DNA from: Bryobacteraceae bacterium
GTDB lineage: Bacteria > Acidobacteriota > Terriglobia > Bryobacterales > Bryobacteraceae
Assembly: GCA_035602665.1 (NCBI GenBank)
Contig: DATNLV010000228.1
Location: 1-50,630 of the forward strand
Direction of reading: 5' to 3'
Length of the DNA stretch: 50,630 nt
Made by a program: the position numbers and the translations under genes. Within the stretch, counting starts at the first letter, position 1; each line of letters opens with the position of its first letter. This document shows positions 3,024 through 23,306 of this stretch, in pieces. The notes beneath the pieces are model-generated. The model was not told where the DNA came from, did not search any database, and was given only the letters and a program-made list of their open reading frames with translations.

Positions 3024-3046
3024 CCGCTTGGCTCCAGGTGTGAATC

Positions 3047-5020: not shown

Positions 5021-5870
5021 CGACACTGCCTGCTCCCCGATGAAGGCCGGCGAGTTCGCCAAGATCCGCCAGCTCGCCTATGACACCTTCGGGCTGGACC
5101 TGCGGGCGGGCAAAGAAACGCTGGTGTCCGCGCGGCTGGGCAAACATATCCGCAAGTCCGGATGCCGTTCCTTCGACGAGTACTACCGGCACGTCGTCGA
5201 GGACTCGACCGGGGAGGCGCTCATCCACCTCATTGACGCGCTCACCACCAACCACACCTCGTTCTTTCGCGAGTCGGCGCACTTCGATTTTCTGCGCAAG
5301 GTGCTTCTGCCGGAGTGGAAGAACCGCGCCGCCATCGAGATCTGGAGCGCCGCCTGCTCCTCCGGCGAAGAGCCTTACTCCATCGCCATGTGCATCCTCG
5401 AGGAACTGGGCGCGGTCCCTCCCGGCAAGGTTCATATTCTGGCCACCGACATTTCGACCCGCGTGCTGGCCGCGGCCGCCAAAGGAATCTATCCGGCCGA
5501 GCGCTTCGAGGCCTTCTCGCCCGTGCAGCTGCGCGGCCACTGGCTGCGCGGAGAGCGCGACTTCGCCGGCTCGTACCGCGCCAAGAAGGAGCTGCGGGCG
5601 ATGATCGAGTTCCGCCGGCTGAATCTGCTGGAGCCAGGCCCCCGGCTCGGCCCTTTCCCGCTTATCTTCTGCCGCAACGTGATGATCTACTTCGACAAGC
5701 CGACCCAGCGGCAGGTGGTCGAGCGCCTGGCCGGGTCCCTGGAGCCGGGCGGCTATCTGCTGACCGGGCACGCCGAAAGCCTCACCGGAATCGACCATGG
5801 GCTCCACTACGTGCAGCCCGCCGTGTACCGCAAAGGGTCCTCGCCGGAGAGGGAGAAGGGGAAACGGTGA
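5007..5870 (+). CDS. cheR: Chemotaxis protein methyltransferase CheR
   Basis: 287 aa. SAM-binding motif IWSAACSSGEEPYSIAM and FCRNVMIYFD. Overlaps the cheA stop by 14 nt. Confidence 0.95.
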   Translation: MQALDDTACSPMKAGEFAKIRQLAYDTFGLDLRAGKETLVSARLGKHIRKSGCRSFDEYYRHVVEDSTGEALIHLIDALTTNHTSFFRESAHFDFLRKVLLPEWKNRAAIEIWSAACSSGEEPYSIAMCILEELGAVPPGKVHILATDISTRVLAAAAKGIYPAERFEAFSPVQLRGHWLRGERDFAGSYRAKKELRAMIEFRRLNLLEPGPRLGPFPLIFCRNVMIYFDKPTQRQVVERLAGSLEPGGYLLTGHAESLTGIDHGLHYVQPAVYRKGSSPEREKGKR

Positions 5871-6379
5871 GCCAACTGACCGTCGGAGTCGGAGACTGCA
5901 AGACCAGCAATGCCCCCGAATCGGTCCTGGCGACCTACGCTCTGGGTTCCTGCATCGCGGTGGCGATTCACGATCCGGTGGCAGGCGTCGGCGGTCTGCT
6001 GCACTTCATGCTGCCGGAGTCCTCGCTCAACCCGGAGAAGGCCAGCCAGAATCCGTTCATGTTCGCCGACACCGGCGTTCCGCTCCTGTTTCGCACCGCC
6101 TACGGGCTGGGCGCCGAGAAACGCCGCCTGGTGGTGAGGGTGGTGGGCGGGGCGCAGGTCATGGACGAGCATGGCGTGTTCAACATCGGGAAGCGCAACC
6201 ACGTGGCGCTGCGCAAGATCCTCTGGAAGGCGGGGGTCATGGTCCACGCCGAAGAGGTCGGAGGGAACACCTCCCGCACCGTGCGGCTGGAGGTGGCGAC
6301 CGGCCGCTTCTGGATCCGCGGGCCCGGGATGGAGGATCGCGAAATGATGCCGTCGTCGACGGGAAAGGGAGGACGCTGA
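5867..6379 (+). CDS. cheD: Chemoreceptor glutamine deamidase CheD
   Basis: GTG start in a GTGA overlap with the cheR stop. ATYALGSCIAVAIHDP...GGLLHFMLP matches the CheD core. The ORF-track entry 5315-6379 is an upstream over-extension of the same frame. Confidence 0.9.
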   Translation: MSQLTVGVGDCKTSNAPESVLATYALGSCIAVAIHDPVAGVGGLLHFMLPESSLNPEKASQNPFMFADTGVPLLFRTAYGLGAEKRRLVVRVVGGAQVMDEHGVFNIGKRNHVALRKILWKAGVMVHAEEVGGNTSRTVRLEVATGRFWIRGPGMEDREMMPSSTGKGGR

Positions 6380-6771
6380 TGGAACTCCGTGTATTGATCG
6401 TGGACGATTCCTCGGTGATGCGCGCGTTCATACGCCGCGTCCTGGAGTTGTCCGGCCTGGAGATCGGGCTCTGCCTGGAGGCCTCGAACGGCGAAGAGGC
6501 GCTGCGGGTGCTCGAAAACAACTGGGTGGACGCGGTGCTCACCGATATCAACATGCCGACGATGGACGGCGAAGAGTTGCTGCGGCGGATGTCCGAACAC
6601 GCGGTGTTGCGGCTGATCCCGGTCCTGGTGGTATCGACGGACCGCACCGAAGGTCGCGTGCAGAAAATGCTCACGCTGGGGGCCAAGGGCTATGTCACCA
6701 AGCCCTTTGCACCGGAGACCTTGCGGGAAGAACTGGAACGCAGTCTGGCGGTGGTCAATGGAACCGAATGA
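6379..6771 (+). CDS. cheY: CheY-like single-domain response regulator
   Basis: ATG shares its A with the cheD TGA. MELRVLIVDDS...LTDINMPTMDG...VSTD...TKPF carries all receiver signature residues. 130 aa. Confidence 0.9.
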   Translation: MELRVLIVDDSSVMRAFIRRVLELSGLEIGLCLEASNGEEALRVLENNWVDAVLTDINMPTMDGEELLRRMSEHAVLRLIPVLVVSTDRTEGRVQKMLTLGAKGYVTKPFAPETLREELERSLAVVNGTE

Positions 6772-7291
6772 GATCCAGGTGGGGTTGGCGGCGGCGGTCG
6801 AGGAGGTCCTCGAAACGATGTGCTTTACCAGTGTGCTCGCGAGCGGCGAGGGAGCAGCCCCGGCCGGCATGGGCGCCGGGCACCGAACCGCGAGCGTGAG
6901 CGAGCGGACCTCGGCTGGGAGCGAAGAAACGGTCCCGGACGCCGCGGCGCGCTCGTGCACCGCGGAGCTGCACTTCGAAGGTAATCCTTCGGGCGGATGC
7001 CGCGTAAGCGTCCCGTTGAAGCTGGCACGAGTGGTAGGCGCCGGCTTTCTCGGCAGCGAGGAGATGGAAGTGTCCGACTCCCAGGCCGAGGAGGTGGTCT
7101 GCGAACTGGCCAACATGATCTGCGGCTCGGTGCTGAGCCGGCTCGAAAGCGAGGAGACGTTCCGCATCACTCACCCCCAACTGGTCCCGCCGGAGCGGGG
7201 CGCCGGCTTCGAAAACGCGGCCATCAACCGCTGGTTCGACTTGGGAGATGGAATCCTCACCGTAACGCTGGAGCTTCAGCCGGCCATATGA
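6758..7291 (+). CDS. cheX: CheX/CheC-family CheY-P phosphatase-like protein
   Basis: Starts at MEPNEIQ, overlapping the cheY end by 14 nt. Contains EEVVCELANMICGSV...THP, resembling the [DS]xxxExxN-x22-P phosphatase motif. Position between cheY and cheB fits. Confidence 0.7.
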   Translation: MEPNEIQVGLAAAVEEVLETMCFTSVLASGEGAAPAGMGAGHRTASVSERTSAGSEETVPDAAARSCTAELHFEGNPSGGCRVSVPLKLARVVGAGFLGSEEMEVSDSQAEEVVCELANMICGSVLSRLESEETFRITHPQLVPPERGAGFENAAINRWFDLGDGILTVTLELQPAI

Positions 7292-8346
7292 AGACCCGGG
7301 TCCTGATCGTCGATGATTCCGCCATCGTCCGCAAGTTGCTGGCCGAGGCCTTGTCCGAAGAGAAGGACATCGAGGTCGTGGGAACCGCGCCCGACCCCTT
7401 CGTGGCCCGCGACAAAATCCTCGCGCTCAGGCCGGACGTCCTGACGCTCGACATCGAGATGCCCCGCATGGACGGCCTCACGTTCCTGAAAAAGCTAATG
7501 CACTACCAGCCGATTCCGGTGGTCGTAATCAGCTCGCTCGGGCAGGCCGGATGCCAGGCGACTCTGGAGGCTTTGCGTCTTGGCGCCGTGGAGGTGCTGG
7601 CCAAGCCCGGTGGCCCCTACTCGGTAGGCGAGTTGCGGCTGGACCTGGCGGCTAAGATCCGGGCCGCCGCCGCCGCGCGTCTCCGCCGTGCGCCAACCGC
7701 GCCAACCGCGCACCCCGCGCCGGCCGCTAAACCGGAACCGTCCCTTCCCCCGGCCGCGTTCGATCCCGATGCGATCATCGCGGTCGGCGCCTCTACCGGA
7801 GGAACCGAAGCAATTCAGGACGTGCTCACCCACATGCCCGCCGGCTGTCCCGCCATGGTAATCACCCAACACATACCGCCCGTCTTCTCGCTGGCCTTCG
7901 CTAACCGGCTGAACGAGATCTGCCCAATGGAGGTCAAGGAAGCCCGGGACGGCGATGCGGTGGTCCGCGGCCGGGCCCTGATCGCACCCGGAAACTTCCA
8001 CATGTTGCTCCGCAAATCACCCGGCGGAGGCTTCCGGGTCACCGTCCAGGATGGCCCCCGCGTCTGCTACCAGCGGCCGTCCGTGGACGTCATGTTCTGC
8101 TCCGTGGCCGACGCCGCCGGTCCCCGGGCCATCGGCGTCCTGCTGACCGGAATGGGGAGCGACGGCGCCCGCGGGATGCTGAAGATGAAACAGAGCGGCG
8201 CCAGGACCATCGCGCAGGACGAGGCCAGCTGCGTGGTCTACGGAATGCCGCGGGAAGCCGTGCGCCTTGACGCGGCCGAGCAGGTCGTCCCCCTCGGCAA
8301 AATCCCCGCCGCCATCCTCGGCCAACTCAGCCGCATCGCGCGATAA
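7288..8346 (+). CDS. cheB: Chemotaxis response regulator protein-glutamate methylesterase CheB
   Basis: ATGA overlap with cheX. REC domain (MKTRVLIVDDS...LTLDIEMPRMDG) plus esterase domain (GASTGGTEA, LLTGMGSDGA, QDEASCVVYGMP). 352 aa. Confidence 0.95.
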   Translation: MKTRVLIVDDSAIVRKLLAEALSEEKDIEVVGTAPDPFVARDKILALRPDVLTLDIEMPRMDGLTFLKKLMHYQPIPVVVISSLGQAGCQATLEALRLGAVEVLAKPGGPYSVGELRLDLAAKIRAAAAARLRRAPTAPTAHPAPAAKPEPSLPPAAFDPDAIIAVGASTGGTEAIQDVLTHMPAGCPAMVITQHIPPVFSLAFANRLNEICPMEVKEARDGDAVVRGRALIAPGNFHMLLRKSPGGGFRVTVQDGPRVCYQRPSVDVMFCSVADAAGPRAIGVLLTGMGSDGARGMLKMKQSGARTIAQDEASCVVYGMPREAVRLDAAEQVVPLGKIPAAILGQLSRIAR

Positions 8347-8496: not shown

Positions 8497-8512
8497 AGGA
8501 ACCGGAATTGCT
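8497..8512 (+). promoter_or_regulatory. Sigma-54 type -24/-12 promoter candidate
   Basis: aGGaaCcggaaTTGCt against consensus TGGCACG-N4-TTGCW. The GG (8498-8499) and GC (8510-8511) have the canonical spacing. It lies 22 nt upstream of the 8534 ATG. A sigma-54 activator is encoded at 15924-17282. Confidence 0.45.
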
Positions 8513-8533: not shown

Positions 8534-8686
8534 ATGAATACCGACACCTACTGGCTGAACATGACCAATATCCTCCTCGGCATGGTCACGGCCATCTCCT
8601 TCCTCCTGATCCTGAAGGCCGTTGTTGCCGAGCTCGCCGCGCACCGCCACCACCGGCCGCTGAACCAGGAAGAGATCGAGCTGTAG
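8534..8686 (+). CDS. Small single-TM protein (50 aa), first gene of the redox module
   Basis: Below the ORF-track size cutoff; read by eye as MNTDTYWLNMTNILLGMVTAISFLLILKAVVAELAAHRHHRPLNQEEIEL. It resembles the N-terminal anchor of the 14168-14992 product (TM followed by RHH). It sits just after the sigma-54 motif and 8 nt before the next gene. Confidence 0.45.
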   Translation: MNTDTYWLNMTNILLGMVTAISFLLILKAVVAELAAHRHHRPLNQEEIEL

Positions 8687-8694
8687 CCCCTGCT

Positions 8695-9519
8695 ATGCGG
8701 TGCCCCTACCTTCAGGAAACGCAGATCAGGTTCTGCCGTATCGCGGCCGGGCCCAAAATGATCGCCCGCGCCGGCGCCGGCGGGTTCGAGGAAAAGTGCT
8801 CCTCGCCCTCCTACGCTACCTGCGCGGTCTACCGCCAGCGCCCCGGCGATGCGACCGATCCTATCTGCCCACACCTGGAGACTTCGCCCGCGCAATACTG
8901 CTCGGCCGCGCCCGAAAGGCGGCCCATCCCCCGCAAGCCGCTGCCAACCGCCTGCGAGGGAGGCTGCTACCGATATTGTTTCCTCTACCGCGACCTGCTG
9001 GGAACGGCCGACGAGGCGCCAACCATCGACGGCGTCCGCGTACCGCCCGACCTCCTCTATGCCGCCAACCACCTCTGGCTCCATCGCGCCGAGGACGGCT
9101 GGTGCCACGCCGGCATCGACGGCTTTCTGGCGAAGCTGCTGGGCCGGGTCGAAGCGGTCAGCGTGATCGCGTCCAAAGGCACGCTGGCGCCGAGCGCGGT
9201 CCTTCGGGCGCACGCCCTGAACTGGCGGGTCGCGTTTCCGAATCCGCTCCGCGACGCGGTCGGGAACCCGCAACTGCGCGCTCATCCCGAATGCCTTACG
9301 GCCGACCCGTATGGAGGCGGCTGGCTGTTCGCCGGCCAGGCCGACGCGGGCTCGACCGTCGCGGCCGGGCTCCTCGCAGGAGAGGAGGCGCTTGCATGGA
9401 TGACCCGCGAAATCGAGCGAATCGCGAGCCGGCTGGGCGGCCGGCCGTTCCAGGAAGGCCTGCTGGGCCGCCTGGACCGAGAAGCGTCTTTCAGCCTGTT
9501 TCAGGATTTCTGCCAATGA
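8695..9519 (+). CDS. Cys-rich protein with C-terminal glycine-cleavage-H (GcvH)-like fold, no lipoyl lysine
   Basis: 274 aa. Nine Cys in the first 94 residues, including a duplicated C-P-[YH]-L-x6-[FY]-C motif (C3..C14, C58..C69) and CEGGCYRYC. The C-terminal half aligns to GcvH (NHLWLHRAEDGWCHAGIDGF...DPYGGGWLF). No signal peptide. Confidence 0.8.
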   Translation: MRCPYLQETQIRFCRIAAGPKMIARAGAGGFEEKCSSPSYATCAVYRQRPGDATDPICPHLETSPAQYCSAAPERRPIPRKPLPTACEGGCYRYCFLYRDLLGTADEAPTIDGVRVPPDLLYAANHLWLHRAEDGWCHAGIDGFLAKLLGRVEAVSVIASKGTLAPSAVLRAHALNWRVAFPNPLRDAVGNPQLRAHPECLTADPYGGGWLFAGQADAGSTVAAGLLAGEEALAWMTREIERIASRLGGRPFQEGLLGRLDREASFSLFQDFCQ

Positions 9520-10103
9520 AGAACTATCGAGGGTCGATTCTTTTCGTTGCCGGCTTCGCCATCGCGCTGTCGGCCGGCTGGCTCGCCTTTCCCCGGGCGG
9601 AGTATGAAAGGCAGAACCAGCCGATTCAGTTCAGCCACAAAGTCCATCGCGACAAGGGCGGAATGAAGTGCGAAGACTGCCACGCCATCCGCGATGACGG
9701 GACCTTCAGCGGCATTCCCGCCGTCGACAAGTGCGCCGGCTGCCACGCCGCCCCGATGGGCACCACGGACGAAGAGAAACGGATGATCAAGCGCTACATC
9801 GAGCCGAACCGCGAGATTCCGTGGCTGGTCTACGCGCGCCAGCCGGAGAACGTGCGGTTCTCGCACGCCTTCCACGTGAAGCTGGCCAAGCTCGCCTGCG
9901 AGCGCTGCCACCAGGCGCACGGCGATTCCAACTCGCTCCCGGCCTTCGAGCGCGACCGCGTCAGCGGCTACAGCCGCGACATCCTCGGCGACCCGTCGCT
10001 TGCGAACGCGGCAAATCGCCACCCGGGCATGCAGATGGACGACTGCATTCGATGCCACCAGCAGCGCGGGGTCCAGGACAGTTGCCTGGCTTGCCACAAA
10101 TAG
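9516..10103 (+). CDS. Membrane-anchored pentahaem c-type cytochrome (class III / ActA-QrcA-like)
   Basis: ATGA overlap with the previous gene. N-terminal TM ILFVAGFAIALSAGWLAF. Five CxxCH motifs (CEDCH, CAGCH, CERCH, CIRCH, CLACH) and FSHxxH distal-His motifs. 195 aa. ORF-track entry 8700-10103 is an Arg-rich over-extension. Confidence 0.9.
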   Translation: MKNYRGSILFVAGFAIALSAGWLAFPRAEYERQNQPIQFSHKVHRDKGGMKCEDCHAIRDDGTFSGIPAVDKCAGCHAAPMGTTDEEKRMIKRYIEPNREIPWLVYARQPENVRFSHAFHVKLAKLACERCHQAHGDSNSLPAFERDRVSGYSRDILGDPSLANAANRHPGMQMDDCIRCHQQRGVQDSCLACHK

Positions 10104-10112
10104 GAGACACAC

Positions 10113-12173
10113 ATGGGACTCGGGCGGCGCGACTTATTGAAACTGGTGGGCGGCGGGGCGGCGGGCTTCTTCCTGACTCCGGTTCCGTGGAGGCTCATCG
10201 ATGGCGTGGCCATCCGGACCGAAAGCTGGCCCGGCGTTCCGGATCCGCCGCGCGGCGAGGTTCGCACCAGGTACACCACCTGCACCCTCTGCCCGGCCGC
10301 CTGCGGCGTGCGCGCCCGCTGCGTCGTGGATCAGCCGGTCAGCCTGGCCGGAGTGGCCTCGCATCCTGCCAGCGCGGGCGTCCTTTGCCCGGCCGGCCTG
10401 TGCGGCCATCATCTGCCGCTGCTCCCGAACCGCCTGCGCCAGGCGCTCGCGCGCAAGGGCGATAACTTCCAACCTGTGGGCATCGACGCGGTCGCGGGAG
10501 CGGTGGCCACGGCGCTCGCGGACATGCGCCAGAACGGATCGGCCGAGCGCGTCGCAGTCCTCGACGCCCGTCCCGGCCGCACGGCTTCGTTGATGTACCG
10601 CCGCTGGCTGCGAGCCGCGCCGAACGGCACGTACCTCCTGGCGCCCTCGGCCGAAGCCACCGCGCCCATGGGAATCGACATCGCCCGCACCGGCACCGTG
10701 CTCAGCTTCGGAGCGCCTGTGCTGGACGGCTGGGGCACCCCAGGTCGCGTCCTCGAAGCACGCAAGACTTTCCGCCTCATTCAAGTCGAAACGCGGCAAT
10801 CGAGGACCGCCCTGCTCGCCGATGGATGGCTGCCGATCCGTCCCGGCACCGAGGCCGCGCTCGCGCTAGGCATCGCCAACGTTCTGATCGAAGAGAAGCT
10901 GTACGACGCCGCCGCGGCGCGCAACGCCTCCGATTTCGCCGCCTATGCGGCGCTGGCCGCGCAGTTCCCTCCGCAGCGCGCCGCACAGCTCACGGGCATT
11001 CCCGCCCAGACCATCATTGCCGCGGCGCACGATTTCGTCGGCCACGGTCCCGCCATCGCAATCGCCGCGAGCGATCCCGGCGGCGGGCCGCTGGGCGAGG
11101 ATGAGCAGATCGCCATCGCGGCTCTGAACGTACTCTCCGGCAGCATCGGCCGCGAGGGCGGATTCCTGCCGCGCGGAGAAGCGTCGCGCCCGGCCGGGTT
11201 CGAAGAAGCCGCCCTGGCGCCGGAGCAAGGGATCGCCGAAGTGCCCGACGCCTCCATCCGCGTCCTGATCATTGACGACGCGCGCGCCGCCGGTACGTGG
11301 TGCTGGAGCGCGATCGAGCGGAAGCTCGCCGCCACCCACATCGTCGTCGCCATGACCGAATTCCTGGAAGGCGCCGCGCAGCACGCCGATTTCGCCGTGC
11401 CCGCGCCGGCCTATCTCGAAGCGGGCGAAGACGCGCCCGCCCCTCCCGACGTTCCAGCGGCCATGTTCAGCCTGGCCGGAGCCCTTCTGAAACCCCCGCC
11501 CGAAGCCGTCGACGGCGCCGCCTTCCTGAACCAGGTGGCGGGTGGCGGACCCGCGCTGGCCGACGTGCTGAAACAGCGCGTGGCCGCGATTCACGCCTCG
11601 CGCCGTGGCGAAGTCTTCCATTACGCGGATGCCTCGCGCACCGCGGTCCGGGACGTCAAATCGGCTGCCGACCTGTGGAAGGCCCTCGAAGAAGGCGGCT
11701 GCTGGATAGACCACCAGCCGACCCCGCACGAAAAGCCGCTCTTCGCAATTCTCGGCGATGCCCCCGACCGCGTCCTCGAAGCGGCCTCGGGCCGCCTGCC
11801 CGCGGACGCCCAGTTCCCCCTCGCCCTGGTTCCCTACGGATGGCGCGGCGCCGCCGGCGGGGCGATCTCTCCGATCATGACCAAGCTGTACCAGGAATCC
11901 GACCTGCGCCCCGGCGGTGACACCATCGAGCTTCACCCCGACACGGCGCGGAAGTACGGCGTCGCCGACGGCCACGTCGCAATCGTCCAGACCCGCTGCG
12001 GCAGTTGCCAGCGCCGTGTGCGAGTCGATGAGTCCGTGATGCCGGGCGTCATCCAAGCCGAGGTCGGCCCGTCCGCGAGTGGCAATTGCCGGCCGGAGGC
12101 GTTGCTGAACGCGTGCGGCGTCGCCGGCGACGGCACATGGCGTTTGGCGCGCGCCAGTCTGAGGAGGGCATAA
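10113..12173 (+). CDS. Tat-exported molybdopterin-oxidoreductase-family (MopB) subunit, Psr/Qrc/ActB-like
   Basis: 686 aa. AGGAGA RBS. Twin-arginine motif GRRDLLK. N-terminal CxxCxxxC...C cluster motif (CTLCPAAC...LCPAG). MopB blocks WLPIRPGTEAALALG and TIELHPDTARKYGVADGHVAIV. Whether Mo-bisPGD is actually bound cannot be judged by eye. Confidence 0.9.
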   Translation: MGLGRRDLLKLVGGGAAGFFLTPVPWRLIDGVAIRTESWPGVPDPPRGEVRTRYTTCTLCPAACGVRARCVVDQPVSLAGVASHPASAGVLCPAGLCGHHLPLLPNRLRQALARKGDNFQPVGIDAVAGAVATALADMRQNGSAERVAVLDARPGRTASLMYRRWLRAAPNGTYLLAPSAEATAPMGIDIARTGTVLSFGAPVLDGWGTPGRVLEARKTFRLIQVETRQSRTALLADGWLPIRPGTEAALALGIANVLIEEKLYDAAAARNASDFAAYAALAAQFPPQRAAQLTGIPAQTIIAAAHDFVGHGPAIAIAASDPGGGPLGEDEQIAIAALNVLSGSIGREGGFLPRGEASRPAGFEEAALAPEQGIAEVPDASIRVLIIDDARAAGTWCWSAIERKLAATHIVVAMTEFLEGAAQHADFAVPAPAYLEAGEDAPAPPDVPAAMFSLAGALLKPPPEAVDGAAFLNQVAGGGPALADVLKQRVAAIHASRRGEVFHYADASRTAVRDVKSAADLWKALEEGGCWIDHQPTPHEKPLFAILGDAPDRVLEAASGRLPADAQFPLALVPYGWRGAAGGAISPIMTKLYQESDLRPGGDTIELHPDTARKYGVADGHVAIVQTRCGSCQRRVRVDESVMPGVIQAEVGPSASGNCRPEALLNACGVAGDGTWRLARASLRRA

Positions 12174-12176
12174 GCG

Positions 12177-12935
12177 ATGGCTGCGAACAAATCGGCGCGA
12201 TACGGAATGGTCATCGACCTCGACCGCTGCACCGGCTGCGGCGCCTGCATGGTGGCCTGCGCCATCGAGAACAACGTGCCGCCGGCCAACGCCAAGGCCA
12301 CCGAGCGCACCGGCATCACCTGGATGCGCGTCCACCGCCTGGGCAACGGCCGCCCGTTCCCCGACAGCCGGGCCGTGTTCTTCCCCATCCTCTGCCAGCA
12401 GTGCGGCCACCACACGCCGTGCGTCGCCGTCTGCCCGCAGAACGCGGTCGAAGTGGACGCCGCGACCGGCATCGTGGACCAGATGCCGCAGCGCTGCCTC
12501 GGCTGCCGCTATTGCATGGCCGCGTGCCCCTACCATGCCCGATATTTCAACTGGTGGGATCCGGCCTGGCCTGCCGGAATGGAAAAGACGTTGAACCCGG
12601 ACGTGGCGCCGCGCATGCGAGGCGTCGTCGAAAAGTGCAACCTGTGCCACGGCCGCCTGCATCGCGCCGAGTCGAAAGCGGCCGCCGAAGGACGGCGGGA
12701 CATCGCCGCCAACGATTACGTTCCTGCTTGCGTCGAGGCCTGCCCCGCCAAGGCGATCACCTTCGGCGACCTTGCCGACGACCAGACCGAAGTGGCGCAG
12801 CTGGCCCGCAGCGAGGGCGCCTTCCGCCTGCTCGAAAAGCTGGGCACCGAATCGAAAGTCTATTACCGGTCCGAGCGGCCCTGGGTGCACCAGGCGGTCA
12901 AGTCCGGAATCGGAAAGGAGCCGCAACGTGGATAG
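12177..12935 (+). CDS. 4x[4Fe-4S] ferredoxin-type electron-transfer subunit (PsrB/NrfC/QrcC-like)
   Basis: 252 aa. Cys clusters CTGCGACMVAC, CQQCGHHTPCVAVCP, CLGCRYCMAACP and CNLCHGR...CVEACP. No signal peptide of its own, consistent with Tat hitch-hiking on the MopB subunit. Confidence 0.95.
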   Translation: MAANKSARYGMVIDLDRCTGCGACMVACAIENNVPPANAKATERTGITWMRVHRLGNGRPFPDSRAVFFPILCQQCGHHTPCVAVCPQNAVEVDAATGIVDQMPQRCLGCRYCMAACPYHARYFNWWDPAWPAGMEKTLNPDVAPRMRGVVEKCNLCHGRLHRAESKAAAEGRRDIAANDYVPACVEACPAKAITFGDLADDQTEVAQLARSEGAFRLLEKLGTESKVYYRSERPWVHQAVKSGIGKEPQRG

Positions 12936-14160
12936 GAGTTACATCGCGCGCGGATTGGAGCGCTGCACGACGCGCCGCTTCCTGATGTGGTTATTGCCCT
13001 GGACCCTACTGCTCGCCTTCGGCCTCTACGCCGCCGGCCTCTGCCTGTTCAAGGGACTCAACCAGACGAACATGGACAACCGGTTCGCCTTCGGCCTCTG
13101 GATCTTTCTCGACCTCACCGTGATCGCGCTAGGCGCGGGCGCGTTCTTTACCGGCTTCCTGGTCTACATCCTCCGTATGCATGAGCTGAAGGCCGTGATC
13201 AACAGCGCCGTGGTGATCGGCCTGGTCTGCTACAGCGGAGCGGTGACGGTGCTGATGGTGGACGTAGGCCAGCCTCTGCGCGCCTGGTTCACCTTCTGGC
13301 ACCCCAATGTCCACTCCATGCTGACCGAGGTCACGTTCTGTATCACCTGCTACCTCACGGTGCTGGCCATCGAATACCTGCCGCTGCTCCTGAAGAACCG
13401 CCGCCTGCGCCAGGTGCCGTCGTTCCTGGTATTCGAGTTCGAGCTGCATCGCGTGATGTACGTGCTGGCGGGCGTCGGCACGTTCCTCTCGTTCTTTCAT
13501 CAGGGCTCGCTCGGCGGCCTCTACGGCGTGCTGCGCGGCCGGCCGTTCGCCTTCCGCGAGGCGCTGGGCGTGTGGCCTTCCACATTCTTCCTCTTCGTGC
13601 TCTCCGCCGCTGCCGTTGGACCGAGCTTCGTGCTGCTGACCACCTGGCTGGTCGAAAAGATCACCGGCCACCAGCTCGTCGAGCGCACAGTCATGCAAAA
13701 GCTCGGCCGCCTGTCGGGAGTCCTTCTGATCGTCTACGTGCTGCTCAAGACCATCGACACGCTGGTCTGGATGAACCGCACCGTGCCCGGCGAAGGCTTT
13801 TCGCCGCAGCAGTTCTACGGCTTCGAGCCCTTCGGGGTCTGGATTCTTTTCGCGGAGATCGTGGTGTTCGGCCTCCTGCCGGCGGTCGTCCTGCTCGACG
13901 CGCGCAGGCGTGCGTCGCAGGCCTGGCTGCTCACCGCGGCCGGCTTCGCCTGCTTCGGGGTTGCGCTGAACCGCTTCGTCATGACCATCCAGACGCTCGC
14001 GCTCCCGACGCTGCCCTTCGACCGCTTCCTCTCCTACTGGCCAAGCTGGCAGGAAGTCGGGACATTTCTGGCCGTGGTCGCATACGGTGTTCTGGTCTAT
14101 TCGTTGTCCTACCGCTACCTGATCCTGTTTCCGCAGGAGCGGGACCTGAAGGCGAGGTGA
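12928..14160 (+). CDS. NrfD/PsrC/QrcD-family integral membrane quinone-interacting subunit
   Basis: GTG start after GGAAAGGAG, overlapping the FeS gene by 8 nt. About 410 aa and highly hydrophobic, with roughly 8-10 TM helices. The ORF-track start at 12772 lies inside the previous gene. Confidence 0.9.
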   Translation: MDRSYIARGLERCTTRRFLMWLLPWTLLLAFGLYAAGLCLFKGLNQTNMDNRFAFGLWIFLDLTVIALGAGAFFTGFLVYILRMHELKAVINSAVVIGLVCYSGAVTVLMVDVGQPLRAWFTFWHPNVHSMLTEVTFCITCYLTVLAIEYLPLLLKNRRLRQVPSFLVFEFELHRVMYVLAGVGTFLSFFHQGSLGGLYGVLRGRPFAFREALGVWPSTFFLFVLSAAAVGPSFVLLTTWLVEKITGHQLVERTVMQKLGRLSGVLLIVYVLLKTIDTLVWMNRTVPGEGFSPQQFYGFEPFGVWILFAEIVVFGLLPAVVLLDARRRASQAWLLTAAGFACFGVALNRFVMTIQTLALPTLPFDRFLSYWPSWQEVGTFLAVVAYGVLVYSLSYRYLILFPQERDLKAR

Positions 14161-14167
14161 GATCGAA

Positions 14168-14992
14168 ATGTTTCCATGGGTGAACGGCTTCAAATGGGAC
14201 GCGGGCCACGTCATCTTTCTAGGCGCTTTCTACACGGTCGTGATGATCGTGCTGGCGACCGTTGTCCGCGCCCTGGTGCGGTCCAGGCACCATGTCCGCG
14301 TCGAGAAGGTTGAAGCATTCCGGTGGAAGCAGGACTTCCACGATCTGCCGGCGCGGGACCGCCGCTGCCGCCACGAGCTGAACGGAGAAGTGGACTCGCG
14401 CCTCTGCGAGAACGGGTTCGATTGCCGCTCCTGCGCCAAGCACCCGGAGTTCGTGCAGGCTGCCGCGGCGCGGGCCGATCTGCCGAAGGGCGAATTGTTC
14501 GGGTTCCCCATGCCGCTCGACCGCCTGTACCACCGCGGCCACACCTGGGTTCGAAAGGAGAAGGACGGAACGTTGTCGGTAGGCCTCGACGAACTGGGAG
14601 CACGTCTGATCGGCAAGCCGGAACGCCTCGATCTTCCCGAACTCGGCCAGCACCTCAATGCCAACGCCACCGCATGGAGCGCCGCGCGCAACGGTGCGAC
14701 GATCCGCGTGTTGGCCCCGATCGAAGGCACCGTACTCGCCACCGGAGGCCCCGACCAGGGCTGGTATCTGAAACTCCGTCCCGACGGGCCGCAGCCCGAC
14801 ACCCGCCACCTGCTCCGCGACGGAGAAGCCGTCCGCTGGATGTCGCGCGAGCTGGACCGTCTGCAACTTCTAGCCACCCACGGCGCCTGCCCCGCCCTGG
14901 CCGACGGCGGAGCCCTGGTCGAAGACCTCGGCGCCGCCCTACCGAAAAACGAATGGGCCGCCGTCTGCGGCGAAATGCTGTTGGAACCGTAG
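14168..14992 (+). CDS. Membrane-anchored Cys-motif protein with GcvH-like fold, lipoyl lysine replaced by Asn
   Basis: 274 aa. GAGGTGAG RBS. N-terminal TM VIFLGAFYTVVMIVLATVV followed by RALVRSRHH (positive-inside, so the domain is predicted cytoplasmic). C-x12-C-x5-C-x2-C motif. GcvH-like YHRGHTWVRKEKDGTLSVGLDELGARLIG...WSAARNGATIRVLAPIEGTV...GWYLKLR. Confidence 0.8.
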   Translation: MFPWVNGFKWDAGHVIFLGAFYTVVMIVLATVVRALVRSRHHVRVEKVEAFRWKQDFHDLPARDRRCRHELNGEVDSRLCENGFDCRSCAKHPEFVQAAAARADLPKGELFGFPMPLDRLYHRGHTWVRKEKDGTLSVGLDELGARLIGKPERLDLPELGQHLNANATAWSAARNGATIRVLAPIEGTVLATGGPDQGWYLKLRPDGPQPDTRHLLRDGEAVRWMSRELDRLQLLATHGACPALADGGALVEDLGAALPKNEWAAVCGEMLLEP

Positions 14993-15044: not shown

Positions 15045-15836
15045 TCAGCGAGGGCGGGACGCTTTCTCACGCTCCACCTGGCGAACAATAGCCGACGCGA
15101 GTCCTCTGAGCCCTTCGGGGAGGCGCGCCGACAAGACTATCAGATCGGGCGGCTTTCCACTCAGGATCGCTACACCCTCGATGGGACTACCGTTTTTCTC
15201 AAGTGACGAATGTGTTCCCAACCCTTCTGTCTGGGCCGGAGTTCTATATTCAACCACCGCTCTGCCTCTGTAAGTCAGCTTGTCCGATGGATAGGGGCCG
15301 AACGGATACTCGCTTGCAGGAAAATCGGATCCGTCCATCAATTCGTGCACGCGGGACTTGTAGGCTGGGAACACTCGCGCAATGATTCGGACGACCTCAA
15401 GGCTGTCCCCGAGTTGGTCGCTGTGTCTTTCGGAAATCTCAATTGCCGGCCCATTAAAGCCGCGATCCTCTGGCCCGAAAATGTTGTTCCATCCGACCGG
15501 TTGGGGGCTCACATAGAGAAAATCGCCGCCGGAACCATAGACTCCCAGACAATACCAACCCCTTGGGGCAAGCACGCCAAGATCGAGGGCGGACCCGTAA
15601 TAAGCGAGCGCCTTGGCCGCGGTAGGGCTAAGCGGCAGCGATTTGACTGTACCCTTGGGCGCCTCCAGCAGCTCCGCCTGGCCGACAGATCGACATCCAA
15701 TGAAAGGTACCGAAACTGTCGACGCCGCAGACCCTGGAGAACTCGACGCCTCAACTTGTGTCTCCGCGCAAAGCGAAAGGTGCATGGACAGAACCCCGAC
15801 GGCACAACGCAGGCTCCGCGGTGAACGGCATCTCAC
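15045..15836 (-). CDS. Hypothetical lipoprotein (low-GC gene downstream of the sigma-54 activator)
   Basis: I prefer the GTG at 15836, which gives (M)RCRSPRSLRCAVGVLSMHLSLC, a lipoprotein-like signal with an LSLC lipobox. The ORF-track start at 15905 is further upstream. The sequence looks like real protein (GWYCLGVYGSGGDFLYVSPQP). About 52 % GC in the one 60-nt stretch I counted (15181-15240). No family recognised. Confidence 0.6.
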   Translation of the reverse strand: MRCRSPRSLRCAVGVLSMHLSLCAETQVEASSSPGSAASTVSVPFIGCRSVGQAELLEAPKGTVKSLPLSPTAAKALAYYGSALDLGVLAPRGWYCLGVYGSGGDFLYVSPQPVGWNNIFGPEDRGFNGPAIEISERHSDQLGDSLEVVRIIARVFPAYKSRVHELMDGSDFPASEYPFGPYPSDKLTYRGRAVVEYRTPAQTEGLGTHSSLEKNGSPIEGVAILSGKPPDLIVLSARLPEGLRGLASAIVRQVEREKASRPR

Positions 15837-15923
15837 GAGTGACAGTCTACTACCGCGCGAACCTCGCTGTTCACGGGCGTCCCAAGAGGAGACCGACTGC
15901 GGCACAGGGCCGCCCCCGCCTCC

Positions 15924-17282
15924 TCACCGCTCGATCGCGTACTTCTTGATCTTCTCGTACAGCGTCGAGCGCTCGATTCCCAACGTCGCCGCCGTCTCCT
16001 TGATATTGCCGTCGTGCCGCCGCAGCGTCGCCTCGATCGCTTGTTTCTCGATCTCCTGCAGGCTGAGGTTCGTCGGCACGCTCCACGCTTTGCGGCCATC
16101 GACGGCGTGGCCGAGAAACGCGAAATCCTCCTCCGTCAGCACCCGCCCGTGGCAGGTGACAACGGCGCGCTCGATCGCATTCTCGAGCTCGCGCACATTG
16201 CCCGGCCACTCGTGATCGAGCAGCACCTTCAGCGCTCCGTCCGAAAGCTCGGCCAGGTCCTTGCGTAGCTCGTGCGCGATCCGCTCCACGAAGTGGTTGG
16301 CCAGCAGCGGAATGTCCTCGCGGCGTTCGCGCAGCGGCGGAATGCGCGCTTCGATCACGTTGAGCCGGTAGAACAGGTCGTCGCGGAAGCGGCCATCCGC
16401 CACCGCCTGCTCCAGGTTGACGTGGGTCGCGGCGATCACCCGCACGTCCACCTGCACCTCCTCGGCCCCGCCCAGCCGGTAGAACGAGCGCTCCTGCAAC
16501 ACGCGCAGCAGGTCCACCTGCAGCTTGGGCGAAATGTCGCCGATCTCGTCCAGGAAAATCGTGCCTCCGTCGGCTAGCTCGAACTTGCCCTTCTTGCGGT
16601 CGGCCGCGCCGGTGAAGGCGCCCTTCTCGTAACCGAACAACTCGGATTCCAGCAGCGTTTCCGCCAGCGCCGCGCAGGAGACGCCGATAAACGGTTTGCC
16701 CGCGCGCGAGCCGGAATAGTGGATCGCCCGCGCGATGAGTTCCTTCCCGGTCCCGCTTTCCCCGCGAATCAACACGGTGTTCTTCAGGCTGGCGACATCC
16801 TCGGCCAGCTGCATCAGGTCGTGCATCCGCGCGTTTTTGCTGAGGATGTCCTGGAAGCGGTACTGCCGCGTCAGCTTCTTGCGCAGGATCGCGTTCTCCC
16901 GCTGCAGGTTCTTGAGCTTGATGATGCGGCCCACCAGCAGAGAAATCTCCGCCGGGTTGCACGGCTTGACGATGTATTCCTGCGCGCCCTCCTTCATCGC
17001 GGCCACCGCGGTATCGACCGTGGCGTAGGCGGTGATGATCACCACGGATGCCTCGGGCTGGAACCTGCGGATCTCGATCATGGTTTCGATCCCGTCCAGG
17101 CCGCCCGGCATTCTCAGGTCGATGAAGTAGATCGCGTAGGGGCGCGAGCGCGCCTTGTCGATGGCCTCGCCGCCCGACGCCGCGGTATCGACGGCGTAGC
17201 CGTCCTCCCGCAGCCAGGCAGCCAGCGACTCCGCCATCAGCTCCTCGTCATCCACTACCAGGATTTCCCAATTCGCCTTCAT
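15924..17282 (-). CDS. Sigma-54-dependent response regulator (REC-AAA+-Fis HTH, NtrC family)
   Basis: 452 aa. REC (ILVVDDE...[12 protein letters not shown]), Walker A GESGTGKE, sigma-54 contact loop GAFTGA, C-terminal HTH ([18 protein letters not shown]). ATGA overlap with the kinase gene. Confidence 0.95.
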
Positions 17283-18922
17283 TTGGTCTGACTCGCTACC
17301 GGGCTACCTTTGCCCTCCACATCCGCCGGCGTGGCCTGCGCAGCCAGGGGCAGCGTGACCGAGAAACAGGTGCCCTCCCCCGGCTTGCTCGTTACTTCGA
17401 TGTCGCCGCCATGCTCCTGCACGATCCCGTAAGTCACCGCCAGTCCCAGCCCCACTCCCTTGCCCTCGGGCTTGGTGGTGAAAAACGGGTCGAAGATCTT
17501 CGCCAGATTCTCCGGAGCGATGCCGTCGCCATTGTCCTCCACCGCGAGCACCACCACGCCCGCATCCGGGCGAGCCCGTGTACGAATGGCGATCCGCCCC
17601 TCGCTGCGACGCTGCACTGCCGCCGCCGCGTTCAGCAGCAGATTGATGATGACCTGCTGCATCTGCGCGCTGTCGCACTCGACCGCCGGCAAATCGGCCT
17701 CCAAATCGAGAACGGTTTCGGCGCCGGCGAGCTTGAGCTTGTGCGCCACCAGGGACAGCGTCGTCCGCACCACCTTGTTCAGGTCCGCCTTGCTCCGTTG
17801 CGGCTTCGAGCGCCGCGCGAAAGACAGCAGGTCAGAAACGATCCGCCCCACGCGCCCGGTCTCGCCCACCACGATGGAGAGGTAGCGCCGAAACTCCTCC
17901 AGCCGGCCCGCCGGAACGCCATCGTCCTTCACCATGCGCTGCATGAGCATGGAGAGATTCAGCACCGTGGACACCGGGTTGTTCACTTCGTGAGCCACGC
18001 TGGCGGCAAGCTGGCCGAGCGAGGCCATGCGATCGCTCTGCAGCAATCTCTGGTGAGCGGCCTTGAGCTGTTCGGTGCGGCGCTCCACTTTTCCTTCCAG
18101 GCCCTGGTTCACTTGATTGATCTCCGCCAGGGCATCGCGCAGCCGCTCGCGCATTCGGTTGAACGAGTGCGCCAGCTGGTTCAGTTCCTCGCTGCTCTCG
18201 ATCGGCTCGACGGGCTTATCGAGCTCCATCGCGCTCACGGCGTGTGTGCCGTCGATCAGCTTGCCGATCGGAACCGTGACGAAGTGATGCGTGAAGAACA
18301 CGACAAACAGGCTGAGCAGCAGTATCTGGATGCCGGTGACCAGGTACACGCGCGTCTGCATGGCGCGCACTTCGCGGTCCACCGGGCTGAGGTCCAGGGC
18401 AAGGTCCAGCACCCCGAGCACGCGCACATCGGCGGGATGGGCGTGGCACGCGGACTCGCTGCATGCCTTTTCGTTGTAGATCGGCGTCACCATCACCAGG
18501 CTGCGGTGCCCGTTGCTGGCCGCGAACACGCGTACCCGCGAGCGCGACTCGATCTTCACCTTGGGTGGGACTCCGGTGTGGCAGCGGGCGCAAGGGTCTT
18601 CGGACTTGTCCAGGTCGTGCCCCGGAACCGGGTCGGTCGAGAACATCAGCCGGCCGGTCCGGTTGAAGATGCGTATGCGGTCGATGCCCTGCGTGCGGGC
18701 GATGGCCTGCATCACCTGAAAGGCGGTCTCGCGGTGGTCGCGCAGCATCGCGTGCCAGGTGGCGCTGGTGATGCCGTGAGAAAGCTGGTCCGCCCCGACG
18801 ATCATGGCGTTCAGGAGCTGGCGTTCCTGGGTCTTGATATTCACCACGCCCCAAACGGCGGCGAGGACGATCACGATCACCGTGAGCGACAAGACGAGTT
18901 TCTGAGACAGCCTCTTTGGCAC
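17279..18922 (-). CDS. Sensor histidine kinase with periplasmic Cys/His-motif domain, HAMP, HisKA, HATPase_c
   Basis: 547 aa, GTG start. TM1 at residues 9-27 and TM2 around 193-212. The periplasmic segment carries CARCH (CxxCH) and CSESACH (Cx4CH). H-box [10 protein letters not shown]; G-boxes DNGDGI and GKGVGLGL. Confidence 0.95.
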
Positions 18923-21731: not shown

Positions 21732-23294
21732 TCAGTCTTCCTGCGGCTGCGCCCCGGTCTCGAGCTCCAGGCGCACGTCCTTGGGAGCGGTGCCGTTCCA
21801 CTTGGTGAAAGACTCTCTCACGATGCGGAAGATCGAGCCCCGGTTTTGTCCGATCACCTTCAGCCAGCCCCAGGCTCCCTTCGGCGGGAAGTAGATGCCA
21901 CGGAAAAAAATCCGCGCGATCATGTGACTGATCTTGTAGGGGACCGGCTCATCCGCGATCGACTCCAGTGCCCGGGCGGTCTCCGCGGGACTGTACGAGT
22001 TGGCCCAGGCGGAATGGACTTCGTCCTGCACCTCGGGGATGGTCATCTTCAGCGGCGTGTGGGCCATGTGAAATGGCGCGAACTCGAGCCAGTGTTTCGG
22101 CCGCGTCAGCCGCCCTTCCTTCGCCAGGCGGTCGTACAGGGGCGTCGCCGGGAACGGCGTGATCTGCCCGAAGACCGGCAGCACCGGAGGCCAGTCGCGT
22201 ATCTGGCTCAACGTGCGCTCGGCGACGCCGGGCGTGTCGTTGTCCAGGCCGAAGATGAAGGACGTGATCGCGTACACGTTTCTCTGCGCCAGCCGCTGAA
22301 GCACGGCCGCGTATTCGCCGGGCTTGTTGAAGCTCTTGTTCACGCTGGCCAGGTTGGCCGGATCGAGAGACTCCATGCCGATGAAGATCCACTTCCCGCC
22401 CGAATCCGCGATCAGGTCCACCAGTTCCTGGTCGCGCAGAAGGTTGGCGCTGATCTGGGCGACCCAGGCCAGTTGCGCGCCGGCGGAGATGATGTCGCGC
22501 AGCAGCGTCTTGGTGCGCCTCACGTTGATGGCGAAGTTGTCGTCGACGAAGAAGACCGCGATCTTGCCCCGGGTGCGCTGCATACGCGCCTTCAGACGCA
22601 GCATTTCGTCCACGATGCTCCTGTTGGAGCGGAAGCGGATCGAATCGCCGAAGAATCCGGTGACGGTGCAGAAGTCGCATCCATAGGGGCAGCCGCGGCC
22701 CGATTCGATGGGGATGATGTGGAACGTCTCCCACGGCCACTTGAAGCGATGCATCATCGCGCGAAAGAACCCGGAGATCCGGTTGAACTGAGCGAGATCG
22801 AGCGACTGCCAGGGGATCTCGGGGTAGTTCTTCAGAGTCGGCTTGTGCTCTTTGCCCGATGCATCCACCGGGGCGTAGATTTCCTTCAGCCGCCCGGCTG
22901 CCGCGTCTTCGACGATAGCGGGCCAGGTTTCGTCGGCCTCGCCCAGAGCGATGGCGTCGGCATGGCGCGGCCCGCCGTCGCGGCCGAGCGCTTCATCCGG
23001 CGCCTCGGTGACGTGCGGCCCTCCCATCACCACGGGAACGCCGGCGGCGCGCACGGCGTCGGCGACGCGGTACGCCTTGGCGACCATACGGGTCATGGCG
23101 CCGATCCCCACCAGCCCGACGTGTTCGGCGAGCACATAGCGCACCAGGTCGGCATCGCTCATGGGCCGCGTGTTGCCATCGATCAGCAACACCTCATGCC
23201 CTGGCGGGGTCAGCGACTGGAGCAGAAACATCCACAGGTGTGGCATGAAATTCTTGGTCACACCGTTGTCGGGACAATAGAGAAGAATCTTCAT
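21732..23294 (-). CDS. B12-binding-domain radical SAM enzyme (class B), substrate unknown
   Basis: 520 aa. N-terminal cobalamin-binding-like Rossmann region (LVGIGAMT...VPVVMGGPHVT). Radical SAM cluster motif CPYGCDFC. Long C-terminal extension. Confidence 0.9.
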   Translation of the reverse strand: MKILLYCPDNGVTKNFMPHLWMFLLQSLTPPGHEVLLIDGNTRPMSDADLVRYVLAEHVGLVGIGAMTRMVAKAYRVADAVRAAGVPVVMGGPHVTEAPDEALGRDGGPRHADAIALGEADETWPAIVEDAAAGRLKEIYAPVDASGKEHKPTLKNYPEIPWQSLDLAQFNRISGFFRAMMHRFKWPWETFHIIPIESGRGCPYGCDFCTVTGFFGDSIRFRSNRSIVDEMLRLKARMQRTRGKIAVFFVDDNFAINVRRTKTLLRDIISAGAQLAWVAQISANLLRDQELVDLIADSGGKWIFIGMESLDPANLASVNKSFNKPGEYAAVLQRLAQRNVYAITSFIFGLDNDTPGVAERTLSQIRDWPPVLPVFGQITPFPATPLYDRLAKEGRLTRPKHWLEFAPFHMAHTPLKMTIPEVQDEVHSAWANSYSPAETARALESIADEPVPYKISHMIARIFFRGIYFPPKGAWGWLKVIGQNRGSIFRIVRESFTKWNGTAPKDVRLELETGAQPQED

Positions 23295-23306
23295 TGGTTC
23301 ACGACT

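Follow-up and report, generated by a model that had tools for sequence, protein, structure and literature searches.

A Membrane-Tethered, Lysine-Less GcvH-Fold Protein with a Conserved Four-Cysteine Module Closes a Qrc-Like Operon in a Bryobacteraceae Bacterium

We analyzed a 50,630-nucleotide stretch of contig DATNLV010000228.1 (assembly GCA_035602665.1) from a Bryobacteraceae bacterium of the Acidobacteriota, referred to here as the window, and focused on the open reading frame (ORF) at 14168..14992 on the plus strand. This ORF, the target, is an open frame of 274 residues and the last gene of a module resembling the menaquinone reductase Qrc. Its product is a tethered protein that joins one transmembrane helix, a four-cysteine (Cys4) module, a lysine-less domain with the fold of the glycine cleavage H-protein GcvH, and a C-terminal helical tail.

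The module begins with a gene for a small single-pass membrane protein of 50 residues carrying the pattern D..TYWLN.TNI.LG.VT (8534..8686, +). It is followed by a soluble paralogue of the target (8695..9519, +), which has two Cys4 units (C3, C14, C35, and C43; C58, C69, C87, and C95) and a lysine-less GcvH fold. An original prediction made from the sequence had placed the target in a respiratory operon, and indeed the genes between paralogue and target have QrcA, QrcB, QrcC, and QrcD as their best NCBIfam matches. They encode a QrcA-like multiheme cytochrome c with five CxxCH motifs (9516..10103, +; 212.7 bits, cutoff 180), a QrcB-like subunit of the molybdopterin family with the twin-arginine leader GRRDLLK (10113..12173, +; 241.6 bits, cutoff 440), a QrcC-like 4Fe-4S subunit (12177..12935, +; 359.5 bits, cutoff 400), and a QrcD-like membrane subunit of the NrfD family (12928..14160, +, starting at GTG 12928 or ATG 12985; 556.8 bits, cutoff 570, with a Pfam NrfD match). 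QrcA thus scores above its cutoff, and QrcC and QrcD just below theirs. The paralogue gene and qrcA overlap by 4 nt, and the ATG of the target lies 7 nt past the qrcD stop codon. The target itself has no homology to QrcA, QrcB, QrcC, or QrcD, and GcvH models are its sole Pfam and NCBIfam matches.

The C-terminal half of the target had been aligned by eye with E. coli GcvH, and phmmer returns exactly that pairing: a search of PDB sequences finds the E. coli H-protein (3a8i_E) at an E value of 5.2e-9, ungapped over residues 115 to 193. Pfam GCV_H matches residues 120 to 191 (model positions 2 to 73 of 122) at 31.1 bits, against a cutoff of 22.2 (E = 2.5e-7). An AlphaFold2 model built with 23 homologues (predicted local distance difference test score, 78.6 overall and about 90 in the GcvH part; predicted template modeling score, 0.72) contains the expected GcvH-like beta-sandwich, which spans residues 116 to 204 (14513..14779, +). 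Foldseek places another E. coli H-protein chain, 3a8j_E, at the top of the PDB matches to this model (E = 2.7e-8; template modeling score, 0.73 to 0.75 normalized on the target), and the best 22 PDB matches are exclusively H-proteins or GcvH-L. The H-protein matches come from E. coli, T. thermophilus, M. tuberculosis, cattle, and humans, with E values of 2.7e-8 to 2.9e-5 and template modeling scores of 0.64 to 0.75. The similarity of the target to GcvH is well above chance, and the fold is genuine. The paralogue behaves similarly, with a Pfam GCV_H score of 25.4 bits, PDB matches down to 6.8e-8, and an AlphaFold2 model that matches H-proteins by Foldseek with template modeling scores of 0.78 to 0.85.

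In the HMMER alignment, and likewise in the by-eye pairing of the original prediction, the lipoyl-lysine of E. coli GcvH (ESVKAAS) pairs with Gly176 of the target and the preceding valine with Asn175. The model has strands at residues 168 to 174 and 177 to 182, which puts Asn175-Gly176 (14690..14695, +) at the tip of the hairpin that bears the lipoyl-lysine in GcvH. The original prediction of an exchange of this lysine for asparagine was therefore right about the loss of the lysine; its counterpart is Gly176, and Asn175 is the neighbor. In the paralogue, for which Ala/His had been proposed, the tip is indeed His173-Ala174, with Ala174 opposite the lysine. Because the tip is Asn-Gly and the target hairpin, WSAARNGATIR, contains no lysine, the target is unable to carry lipoate. 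Its GcvH domain has also lost about 12 residues, a helix with the pattern N..L...PE..N that the paralogue and true GcvH retain, and this deletion accounts for the end of the Pfam match at model position 73.

The target belongs to a family of more than 1,000 relatives at 90% identity clustering, each of about 275 residues and identical in architecture. We counted residue conservation in an alignment of 236 distinct homologues. The lipoyl-lysine column holds Gly in 102, Asp in 53, Asn in 33, Glu in 26, Ala in 5, and Lys in 5 (Gly, Asp, Asn, or Glu in 214), and the column before it holds Arg in 125, Asn in 48, and Gly in 26. There is thus no conserved lysine in this column. A lysine that received the modification would not vary, so lipoylation is not a property of the family as a whole, in agreement with the proposal that the GcvH scaffold is reused without lipoate. 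Pro184, in the domain, is present in all 236 homologues. JGI and NCBI nevertheless name family members "glycine cleavage system H (lipoate-binding) protein" or "hypothetical protein," and the GcvH name is misleading across the whole family. An orthologue in the Sulfopaludibacter metagenome-assembled genome (MAG) CO124 is likewise listed as "Glycine cleavage H-protein," with one predicted transmembrane helix (PMC10564751). That study already noted Qrc in Acidobacteriota, and its main-text passages that we consulted do not discuss the GcvH-like orthologue.

Upstream of the fold, the C-x12-C-x5-C-x2-C motif and the single transmembrane helix of the original prediction are both present. The motif expands to C67-R-H-x3-G-x6-C80-x3-F-D-C86-R-x-C89-x2-H92 (14366..14443, +). 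Each of the four cysteines occurs in 235 of the 236 homologues, which makes them the most invariant feature of the family. The flanking residues R68 (235), G73 (234), F84 (234), H69 (227), and H92 (226) are hardly less constant, and R78 is nearly as constant as the cysteines themselves. Four cysteines at conserved spacing, as in Fe-S or Zn Cys4 sites, likewise do not vary in the cross-family alignment. No family for the Cys modules emerged when whole proteins and isolated motifs were scanned against Pfam and NCBIfam, a 36-sequence profile of the motif found nothing among PDB sequences at E ≤ 10, and the target's motif matches no described metal-binding domain in PDB sequences or Pfam. Two candidates were set aside: a weak Pfam match to Agglutinin_C (E = 0.04) was dismissed as chance, and weak Foldseek matches of the paralogue model to the heme protein Dri1/Ssr1698 (E of about 0.3, probability of about 0.2, 50 columns) fall in a low-confidence region and were taken as noise. 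A full-text literature search found no paper linking GcvH-like proteins with Qrc, NrfD, HdrA, or HdrL. As far as these searches of Pfam, NCBIfam, the PDB, and the literature can tell, the description of such proteins as uncharacterized is accurate.

Relatives carry the C-x12-C-x5-C-x2-C unit in one to four copies, and one cluster of them has it joined to a HoxU-like 2Fe-2S/4Fe-4S protein. In view of the fixed spacing, this link to Fe-S domains, and the Hdr neighbors described below, Fe-S clusters are the most likely occupants of the Cys4 sites, with Zn as the alternative. The earlier suggestion that the Cys motif may be the functional group fits these data.

The transmembrane helix, VIFLGAFYTVVMIVLATVV, comprises residues 15 to 33 (14210..14266, +), has a mean Kyte-Doolittle hydropathy of 2.6, and is predicted to run from N-out to C-in. 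Across the family, the mean number of Lys plus Arg residues is 0.31 before the helix versus 4.33 in the 16 residues after it. By the positive-inside rule, this charge distribution points to a periplasmic N terminus and to Cys, GcvH, and ADGG parts that probably face the cytoplasm. No signal peptide is found in the paralogue or in the Desulfobacterota relatives. In the characterized complex, QrcABC are periplasmic (PMC13059093), and QrcB here carries a twin-arginine leader; the accessory proteins would accordingly occupy the opposite face of the membrane. Residues F17, G19, F21, and R38 in the transmembrane region are invariant, and aromatic residues are conserved in the 13-residue N terminus, which together point to specific packing rather than mere anchoring.

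A scan of one genome per species identified 373 genomes with a relative of the target. The best 80 are MAGs from Bryobacterales, Solibacteraceae, Terriglobia, Thermoanaerobaculia, Bacteroidota/Ignavibacteria, KSB1, and Kryptoniota, and a search for a cultured carrier found only MAGs or metagenome contigs among these 80 genomes and the cluster members examined. Together with four loci obtained by exact protein look-up, they form a synteny set of 84 loci. As far as the contigs extend, the order paralogue, QrcA, QrcB, QrcC, QrcD, target is kept in 84 of 84. In the more distant loci, identity to the window proteins is 71 to 80% for QrcD, 63 to 72% for QrcC, 50 to 59% for QrcA, 46 to 57% for the target, 35 to 50% for QrcB, and 33 to 42% for the paralogue. 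The target is thus about as conserved as QrcA and more so than QrcB.

The two other accessory proteins share features with the target. The paralogue alignment has eight invariant cysteines. Orthologues of the small membrane protein, detected in about 40 loci directly before the paralogue gene, are 79 to 104 residues long, and in most lineages they have a cytoplasmic tail ending in DHAF..LG.TMADGGE. The target carries A245-D246-G247-G248 in its C-terminal helical tail (14900..14911, +), each residue being kept in 227 to 233 of the 236 homologues, and an ADGG-type motif is common to the tails of the target, of the small membrane protein and the paralogue in most lineages, and of the Desulfobacterota relatives. 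In the clade of the window (the window and loci L005 to L007, 4 of 4), the small protein has lost its ADGG tail and the paralogue its DGG segment, while 38 other loci keep both. This joint loss suggests that the three accessory proteins act together.

We searched 1.84 billion representative sequences with a profile and obtained 3,480 clusters at E ≤ 1e-3, of which 148 reached E ≤ 1e-30. The closest untethered relatives are soluble Desulfobacterota proteins of about 310 residues, with two C-x12-C-x5-C-x2-C units, a complete lysine-less GcvH domain, and an ADGG tail. All six Desulfobacterota loci examined (L085 to L090) have a perfect TGGCAC-N5-TTGC promoter 66 to 91 nt before the GcvH-like gene. 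In four of the six, the gene is preceded by a homologous set of kinase, sigma-54 regulator, and M54 peptidase genes, and in four of the six, large HdrA-like genes with MvhD lie alongside, L085 having a CCG-domain gene as well. The HdrA-like genes encode 1,300 to 1,390 residues with NfnB-like and HdrA-like domains (L085 11164-15606, L086 831-5324, L088 1-2913, and L090 9223-13653). Each is preceded by a gene call of 59 to 81 residues with the same FAD-binding domains, and the pair has the appearance of a single gene interrupted by an in-frame stop codon, which might encode selenocysteine.

A second tethered class consists of a transmembrane helix and two lysine-less GcvH domains, encoded after HmcB-like and HmcC-like (NrfD) genes and before an octaheme cytochrome c gene. 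An example is the Hmc-like module at L095 5845-10507, with genes for HmcB-like, HmcC-like, double-GcvH, and octaheme cytochrome c proteins. The HmcC-like gene directly precedes the double-GcvH gene in 8 of the 11 loci fetched (L091 to L097 and L099); of the others, L098 lies on a contig that begins inside the gene, L101 on one that ends just inside it, and L100 has a weak 33% match only. A sigma-54 activator with a PAS domain and no receiver domain is encoded upstream of the Hmc-like module, and no HmcE-like or HmcF-like gene was identified among the scanned ORFs flanking it. With the target after QrcD and the double-GcvH protein after the HmcC-like protein, a tethered lysine-less GcvH protein follows NrfD-type genes in two families of complexes, and the Hmc-like module is an independent second case.

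These proteins resemble several known systems in part. The target keeps the GcvH beta-sandwich together with its initial Y-x-x-x-H-x-W and, past the hairpin, the P-[VI]-x-G strand. It differs in lacking the lipoyl-lysine and the N..L...PE..N helix, in adding the transmembrane helix, Cys4 module, and ADGG tail, and in failing the GcvH equivalog models (TIGR00527, 31.2 bits against 115.85; NF002270, 33.3 bits against 117). Its gene also sits beside qrcABCD and a two-component system, and no gcvT or gcvP was found among the roughly 30 window ORFs scanned, which do not include every small ORF. LbpA offers another parallel, as a GcvH-fold protein in a respiratory or redox gene cluster with extra conserved cysteines beyond GcvH. 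However, LbpA of Hdr-like sulfur oxidation has a strictly conserved lipoylated lysine and dedicated ligases encoded in its cluster (PMC6067878), and it is soluble with another Cys pattern, whereas the target is tethered and lacks the lysine; no hdr, lplA, or other lipoate ligase gene was seen among the module genes and the other scanned ORFs of the window. NF045810 ("GcvH-related protein," in Desulfobacterota) and TIGR03077 ("not_gcvH") are curated GcvH-fold proteins other than the glycine cleavage H-protein. The target matches neither, the paralogue reaches 21.3 bits against a cutoff of 150 for NF045810, and the Cys modules and transmembrane helix are not covered by these models.

The four core genes occur in the same order as those of the Desulfobacterota menaquinone reductase (PMC13059093; PMC6303296). 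Qrc has been described with four subunits only, and canonical QrcD takes up protons from the cytoplasm (PMC13059093). In contrast to this complex of four subunits with periplasmic peripheral parts, the module described here adds three genes for proteins predicted to face the cytoplasm, is found in Acidobacteriota, Ignavibacteria, and related groups, and has a strongly diverged QrcB. Within the module, conservation is lowest for the QrcB-like subunit, at 35 to 50% identity between lineages. As for Hmc, a small transmembrane protein, HmcD, is encoded right after the NrfD-type HmcC, and the double-GcvH protein of L095 holds that position; its transmembrane region gives a subthreshold HmcD match (18.2 bits, cutoff 34), whereas no similarity to HmcD was found in the transmembrane region of the target or in the small membrane protein. 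On its cytoplasmic side, canonical Hmc uses cytochrome b (HmcE) and the HdrD-like HmcF, and it is not known to have GcvH-fold proteins there.

A candidate sigma-54 (-24/-12) element, AGGAACCGGAATTGC, lies at 8497..8511 (+), 23 nt before the first gene of the module, with two mismatches; elements at two mismatches are not significant alone (47 found versus 50 expected). Upstream of the orthologous small ORF, the pattern GG-N8-TTGC occurs in 20 of 63 loci versus about 4 expected (maximum, 9) from shuffled sequences, and locus L006 has CGGAACCGGAATTGCT at the position equivalent to that of AGGAACCGGAATTGC. Downstream of the module and convergent with it are genes for a sigma-54-dependent response regulator (15924..17282, -; Pfam Response_reg, Sigma54_activat, and HTH_8), which is likely the activator of the module, and for a histidine kinase with HAMP, HisKA, and HATPase domains (17279..18922, -). 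Two heme c-type motifs, CARCH at residue 111 and CSESACH at residue 154, fall within the predicted periplasmic sensor part of the kinase, which may be a heme c redox sensor. The L001 orthologue of the kinase has a weak Pfam match to Mcp40H-20_sensor. Among 49 long loci, the module has a regulator orthologue, 70 to 78% identical, beside it in 31 and a kinase orthologue in 30.

Between kinase and regulator there is usually an archaemetzincin-like Peptidase_M54 gene (L001 1690-2229, most of L010 to L082, L086, and L088 to L090), in both Acidobacteriota and Desulfobacterota relatives. The shared ADGG motif might be a substrate of this peptidase. The M54 gene is absent from the window, L005 to L007, and L029, and L029 nonetheless keeps its ADGG tails. 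In the window, a 286-residue ORF (15045-15905, -) with no Pfam match and no counterpart in 90 related loci lies between target and regulator. Elsewhere the window holds a chemotaxis cluster that ends just before the module (1371-8346, +; methyl-accepting chemotaxis protein, CheA-CheW fusion, CheR, response regulator, CheX, and CheB), two adjoining B12-binding radical SAM genes of 520 and 579 residues (21732-25046, -), and a 1,181-residue fusion of CheB, CheR, PAS domains, and a histidine kinase (27002-30547, -). The original prediction did not cover the small membrane ORF (8534-8686), the predicted orientation toward the cytoplasm, the connection to a sigma-54 two-component system, or the second setting after an NrfD-type gene.

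We see about an even chance that the target is a non-lipoylated accessory subunit on the cytoplasmic side of the Qrc-like, NrfD-type quinone-reductase module, with a Cys4 metal or redox site as its likely functional group. Because it is always the last gene of the Qrc-like operon in soil Acidobacteriota and their relatives, the complex probably has unrecognized cytoplasmic-side partners. Conserved gene order (84 of 84 loci) suggests that the target would be present in the complex. The conserved transmembrane helix, with its F-x-G-x-F pattern, would pack against QrcD, and the target, the small membrane protein, and the eight-cysteine paralogue would form a cytoplasmic cap with three Cys4 sites. 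In this cap the lysine-less GcvH domains would be scaffolds for docking instead of swinging arms. Through electron transfer, a dithiol/disulfide or thiol signal, or gating of the cytoplasmic proton entrance of QrcD, the cap could link the redox state of the cytoplasm with the quinone-reducing QrcCD pair, which draws its protons from that side. The whole module would be switched on by the neighboring sigma-54 two-component system.

Several points weigh against such a subunit. QrcABCD of N. vulgaris functions as a four-subunit complex in proteoliposomes (PMC13059093), so the accessory proteins are not needed for core catalysis. The soluble Desulfobacterota relative often forms a monocistronic unit with a sigma-54 promoter of its own and can thus function without an NrfD partner. 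NrfD proteins are not known to carry a cofactor able to pass electrons across the membrane, and an electron-relay role would therefore require an unknown quinone site on the cytoplasmic (N) side. The Cys region of the paralogue is modeled at low confidence. Finally, in the CO124 dataset, the one source of transcript data located, the orthologue has zero reads in all samples and qrcABCD fewer than 2 transcripts per million, levels too low to interpret (PMC10564751).

An assembly or maturation role would account for some of the same observations and is a minority possibility that we take seriously. The two Cys-rich GcvH-like proteins would then resemble FdhE or TorD/DmsD in role, as cytoplasmic Zn- or Fe-binding chaperones that hold or proofread the Tat-exported QrcB and QrcC or help insert QrcD, and would be absent from the mature complex. 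Of the exported pair, only QrcB carries a twin-arginine leader, so both must already be folded in the cytoplasm when they are exported, and operons for enzymes of this class often encode a cytoplasmic chaperone; the GcvH-like proteins are predicted to be cytoplasmic and are rich in cysteine, and Desulfovibrio Qrc is active without them. Yet Desulfobacterota Qrc operons do without such a factor, no likeness to known maturation proteins appeared in Pfam, NCBIfam, or Foldseek searches, and a transient chaperone would not need the highly conserved transmembrane helix and short periplasmic N terminus. Moreover, relatives accompany HdrA-like cytoplasmic enzymes, which are not exported. A signaling role is rather unlikely in our judgment. 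In this case the Cys-rich GcvH-like proteins would sense redox state or metal together with the kinase, M54, and sigma-54 set, perhaps as feedback anti-activators or co-sensors encoded in the operon under control, as PspA/B/C are for PspF, and would not be respiratory subunits. Consistent with this idea, the histidine kinase-(M54)-response regulator triad stands beside the family in 31 of 49 long loci in Acidobacteriota and relatives and also in Desulfobacterota, where the GcvH-like gene, under its perfect sigma-54 promoter (6 of 6 loci), is often alone in its unit. The set of small transmembrane, tethered, and soluble proteins resembles the layout of membrane-stress sensors, and in the clade without M54, two of the three accessory proteins have lost their ADGG tails as well. 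But a gene controlled by a regulator is not thereby a regulator, L029 retains its ADGG tails without M54, and the accessory genes bracket qrcABCD tightly, with a 4-nt overlap on the paralogue side and a 7-nt gap before the target. The position after an NrfD gene also recurs in the Hmc-like module, which has another type of activator (PAS, no receiver).

The Cys module itself invites the idea of a dithiol/disulfide carrier, in which the C86/C89 CxxC pair on the tethered GcvH scaffold replaces the lipoate dithiolane; a cytoplasmic reductase would serve this Cys counterpart of LbpA or DsrC. The scaffold does descend from a swinging-arm carrier, the cysteines are invariant in the target family, and the Desulfobacterota relatives adjoin HdrA-like, MvhD, and CCG-domain (HdrD-like) genes, whose enzymes reduce disulfides; LbpA in Hdr-like clusters shows that GcvH-like proteins can serve enzymes of the Hdr type (PMC6067878). 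We nevertheless find this improbable: four invariant cysteines at fixed spacing with a conserved histidine resemble a metal site more than a redox pair, the Cys unit lies outside the GcvH domain and off its hairpin, and no CCG-domain or Hdr gene was found among the roughly 30 scanned window ORFs or in the Qrc-type loci whose gene lists were inspected. Least credible by far is an acyl or lipoyl carrier that uses a lysine elsewhere, or simply a diverged housekeeping GcvH. Database names favor it, as does position 174, the basic site nearest the tip, which is Lys in 150 of the 236 homologues. This position is Arg in 70 others, however, and the window protein reads Arg174-Asn175-Gly176 in a hairpin free of lysine, so a cryptic lipoyl carrier is effectively excluded for it. 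A housekeeping role is contradicted by equivalog scores of 31 to 33 bits against cutoffs of 116 to 117, by the missing gcvT and gcvP among the ORFs scanned, and by an architecture and gene context unrelated to glycine cleavage.

A broader view, which we put forward as speculative and on balance unlikely, is that the Cys4 lysine-less GcvH proteins represent an unrecognized class of cytoplasmic partners of cofactor-less NrfD subunits, in both Qrc-like and Hmc-like complexes, and give "periplasm-only" complexes a redox-active module on the N side. If so, this module might exchange electrons or a dithiol/disulfide signal with HdrA-type cytoplasmic enzymes or gate proton uptake, and the cysteine module would have taken over the role of lipoate on the ancestral swinging arm. 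The cytoplasmic subunit proposed for the Qrc-like module concerns a known fold in a new role and a known respiratory module extended by three genes, around which a larger sigma-54-controlled family emerges. The family is large: the tethered form comprises more than 1,000 clusters when grouped at 90% identity, and the superfamily about 3,500 when grouped at 50%. Its mislabeling as GcvH can distort metabolic reconstructions from metagenomes, and it offers a clear example of a cofactor-carrier fold that has outlived its cofactor site. In anaerobes, Qrc and its NrfD-type relatives play a central part in energy conservation and are pictured with periplasmic peripheral subunits, the cytoplasm supplying protons only. 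Acidobacteriota, Ignavibacteria, and their relatives are abundant in peat and soil and relevant to sulfur and carbon cycling, and for these groups three conserved proteins predicted to face the cytoplasm would alter the picture of Qrc.

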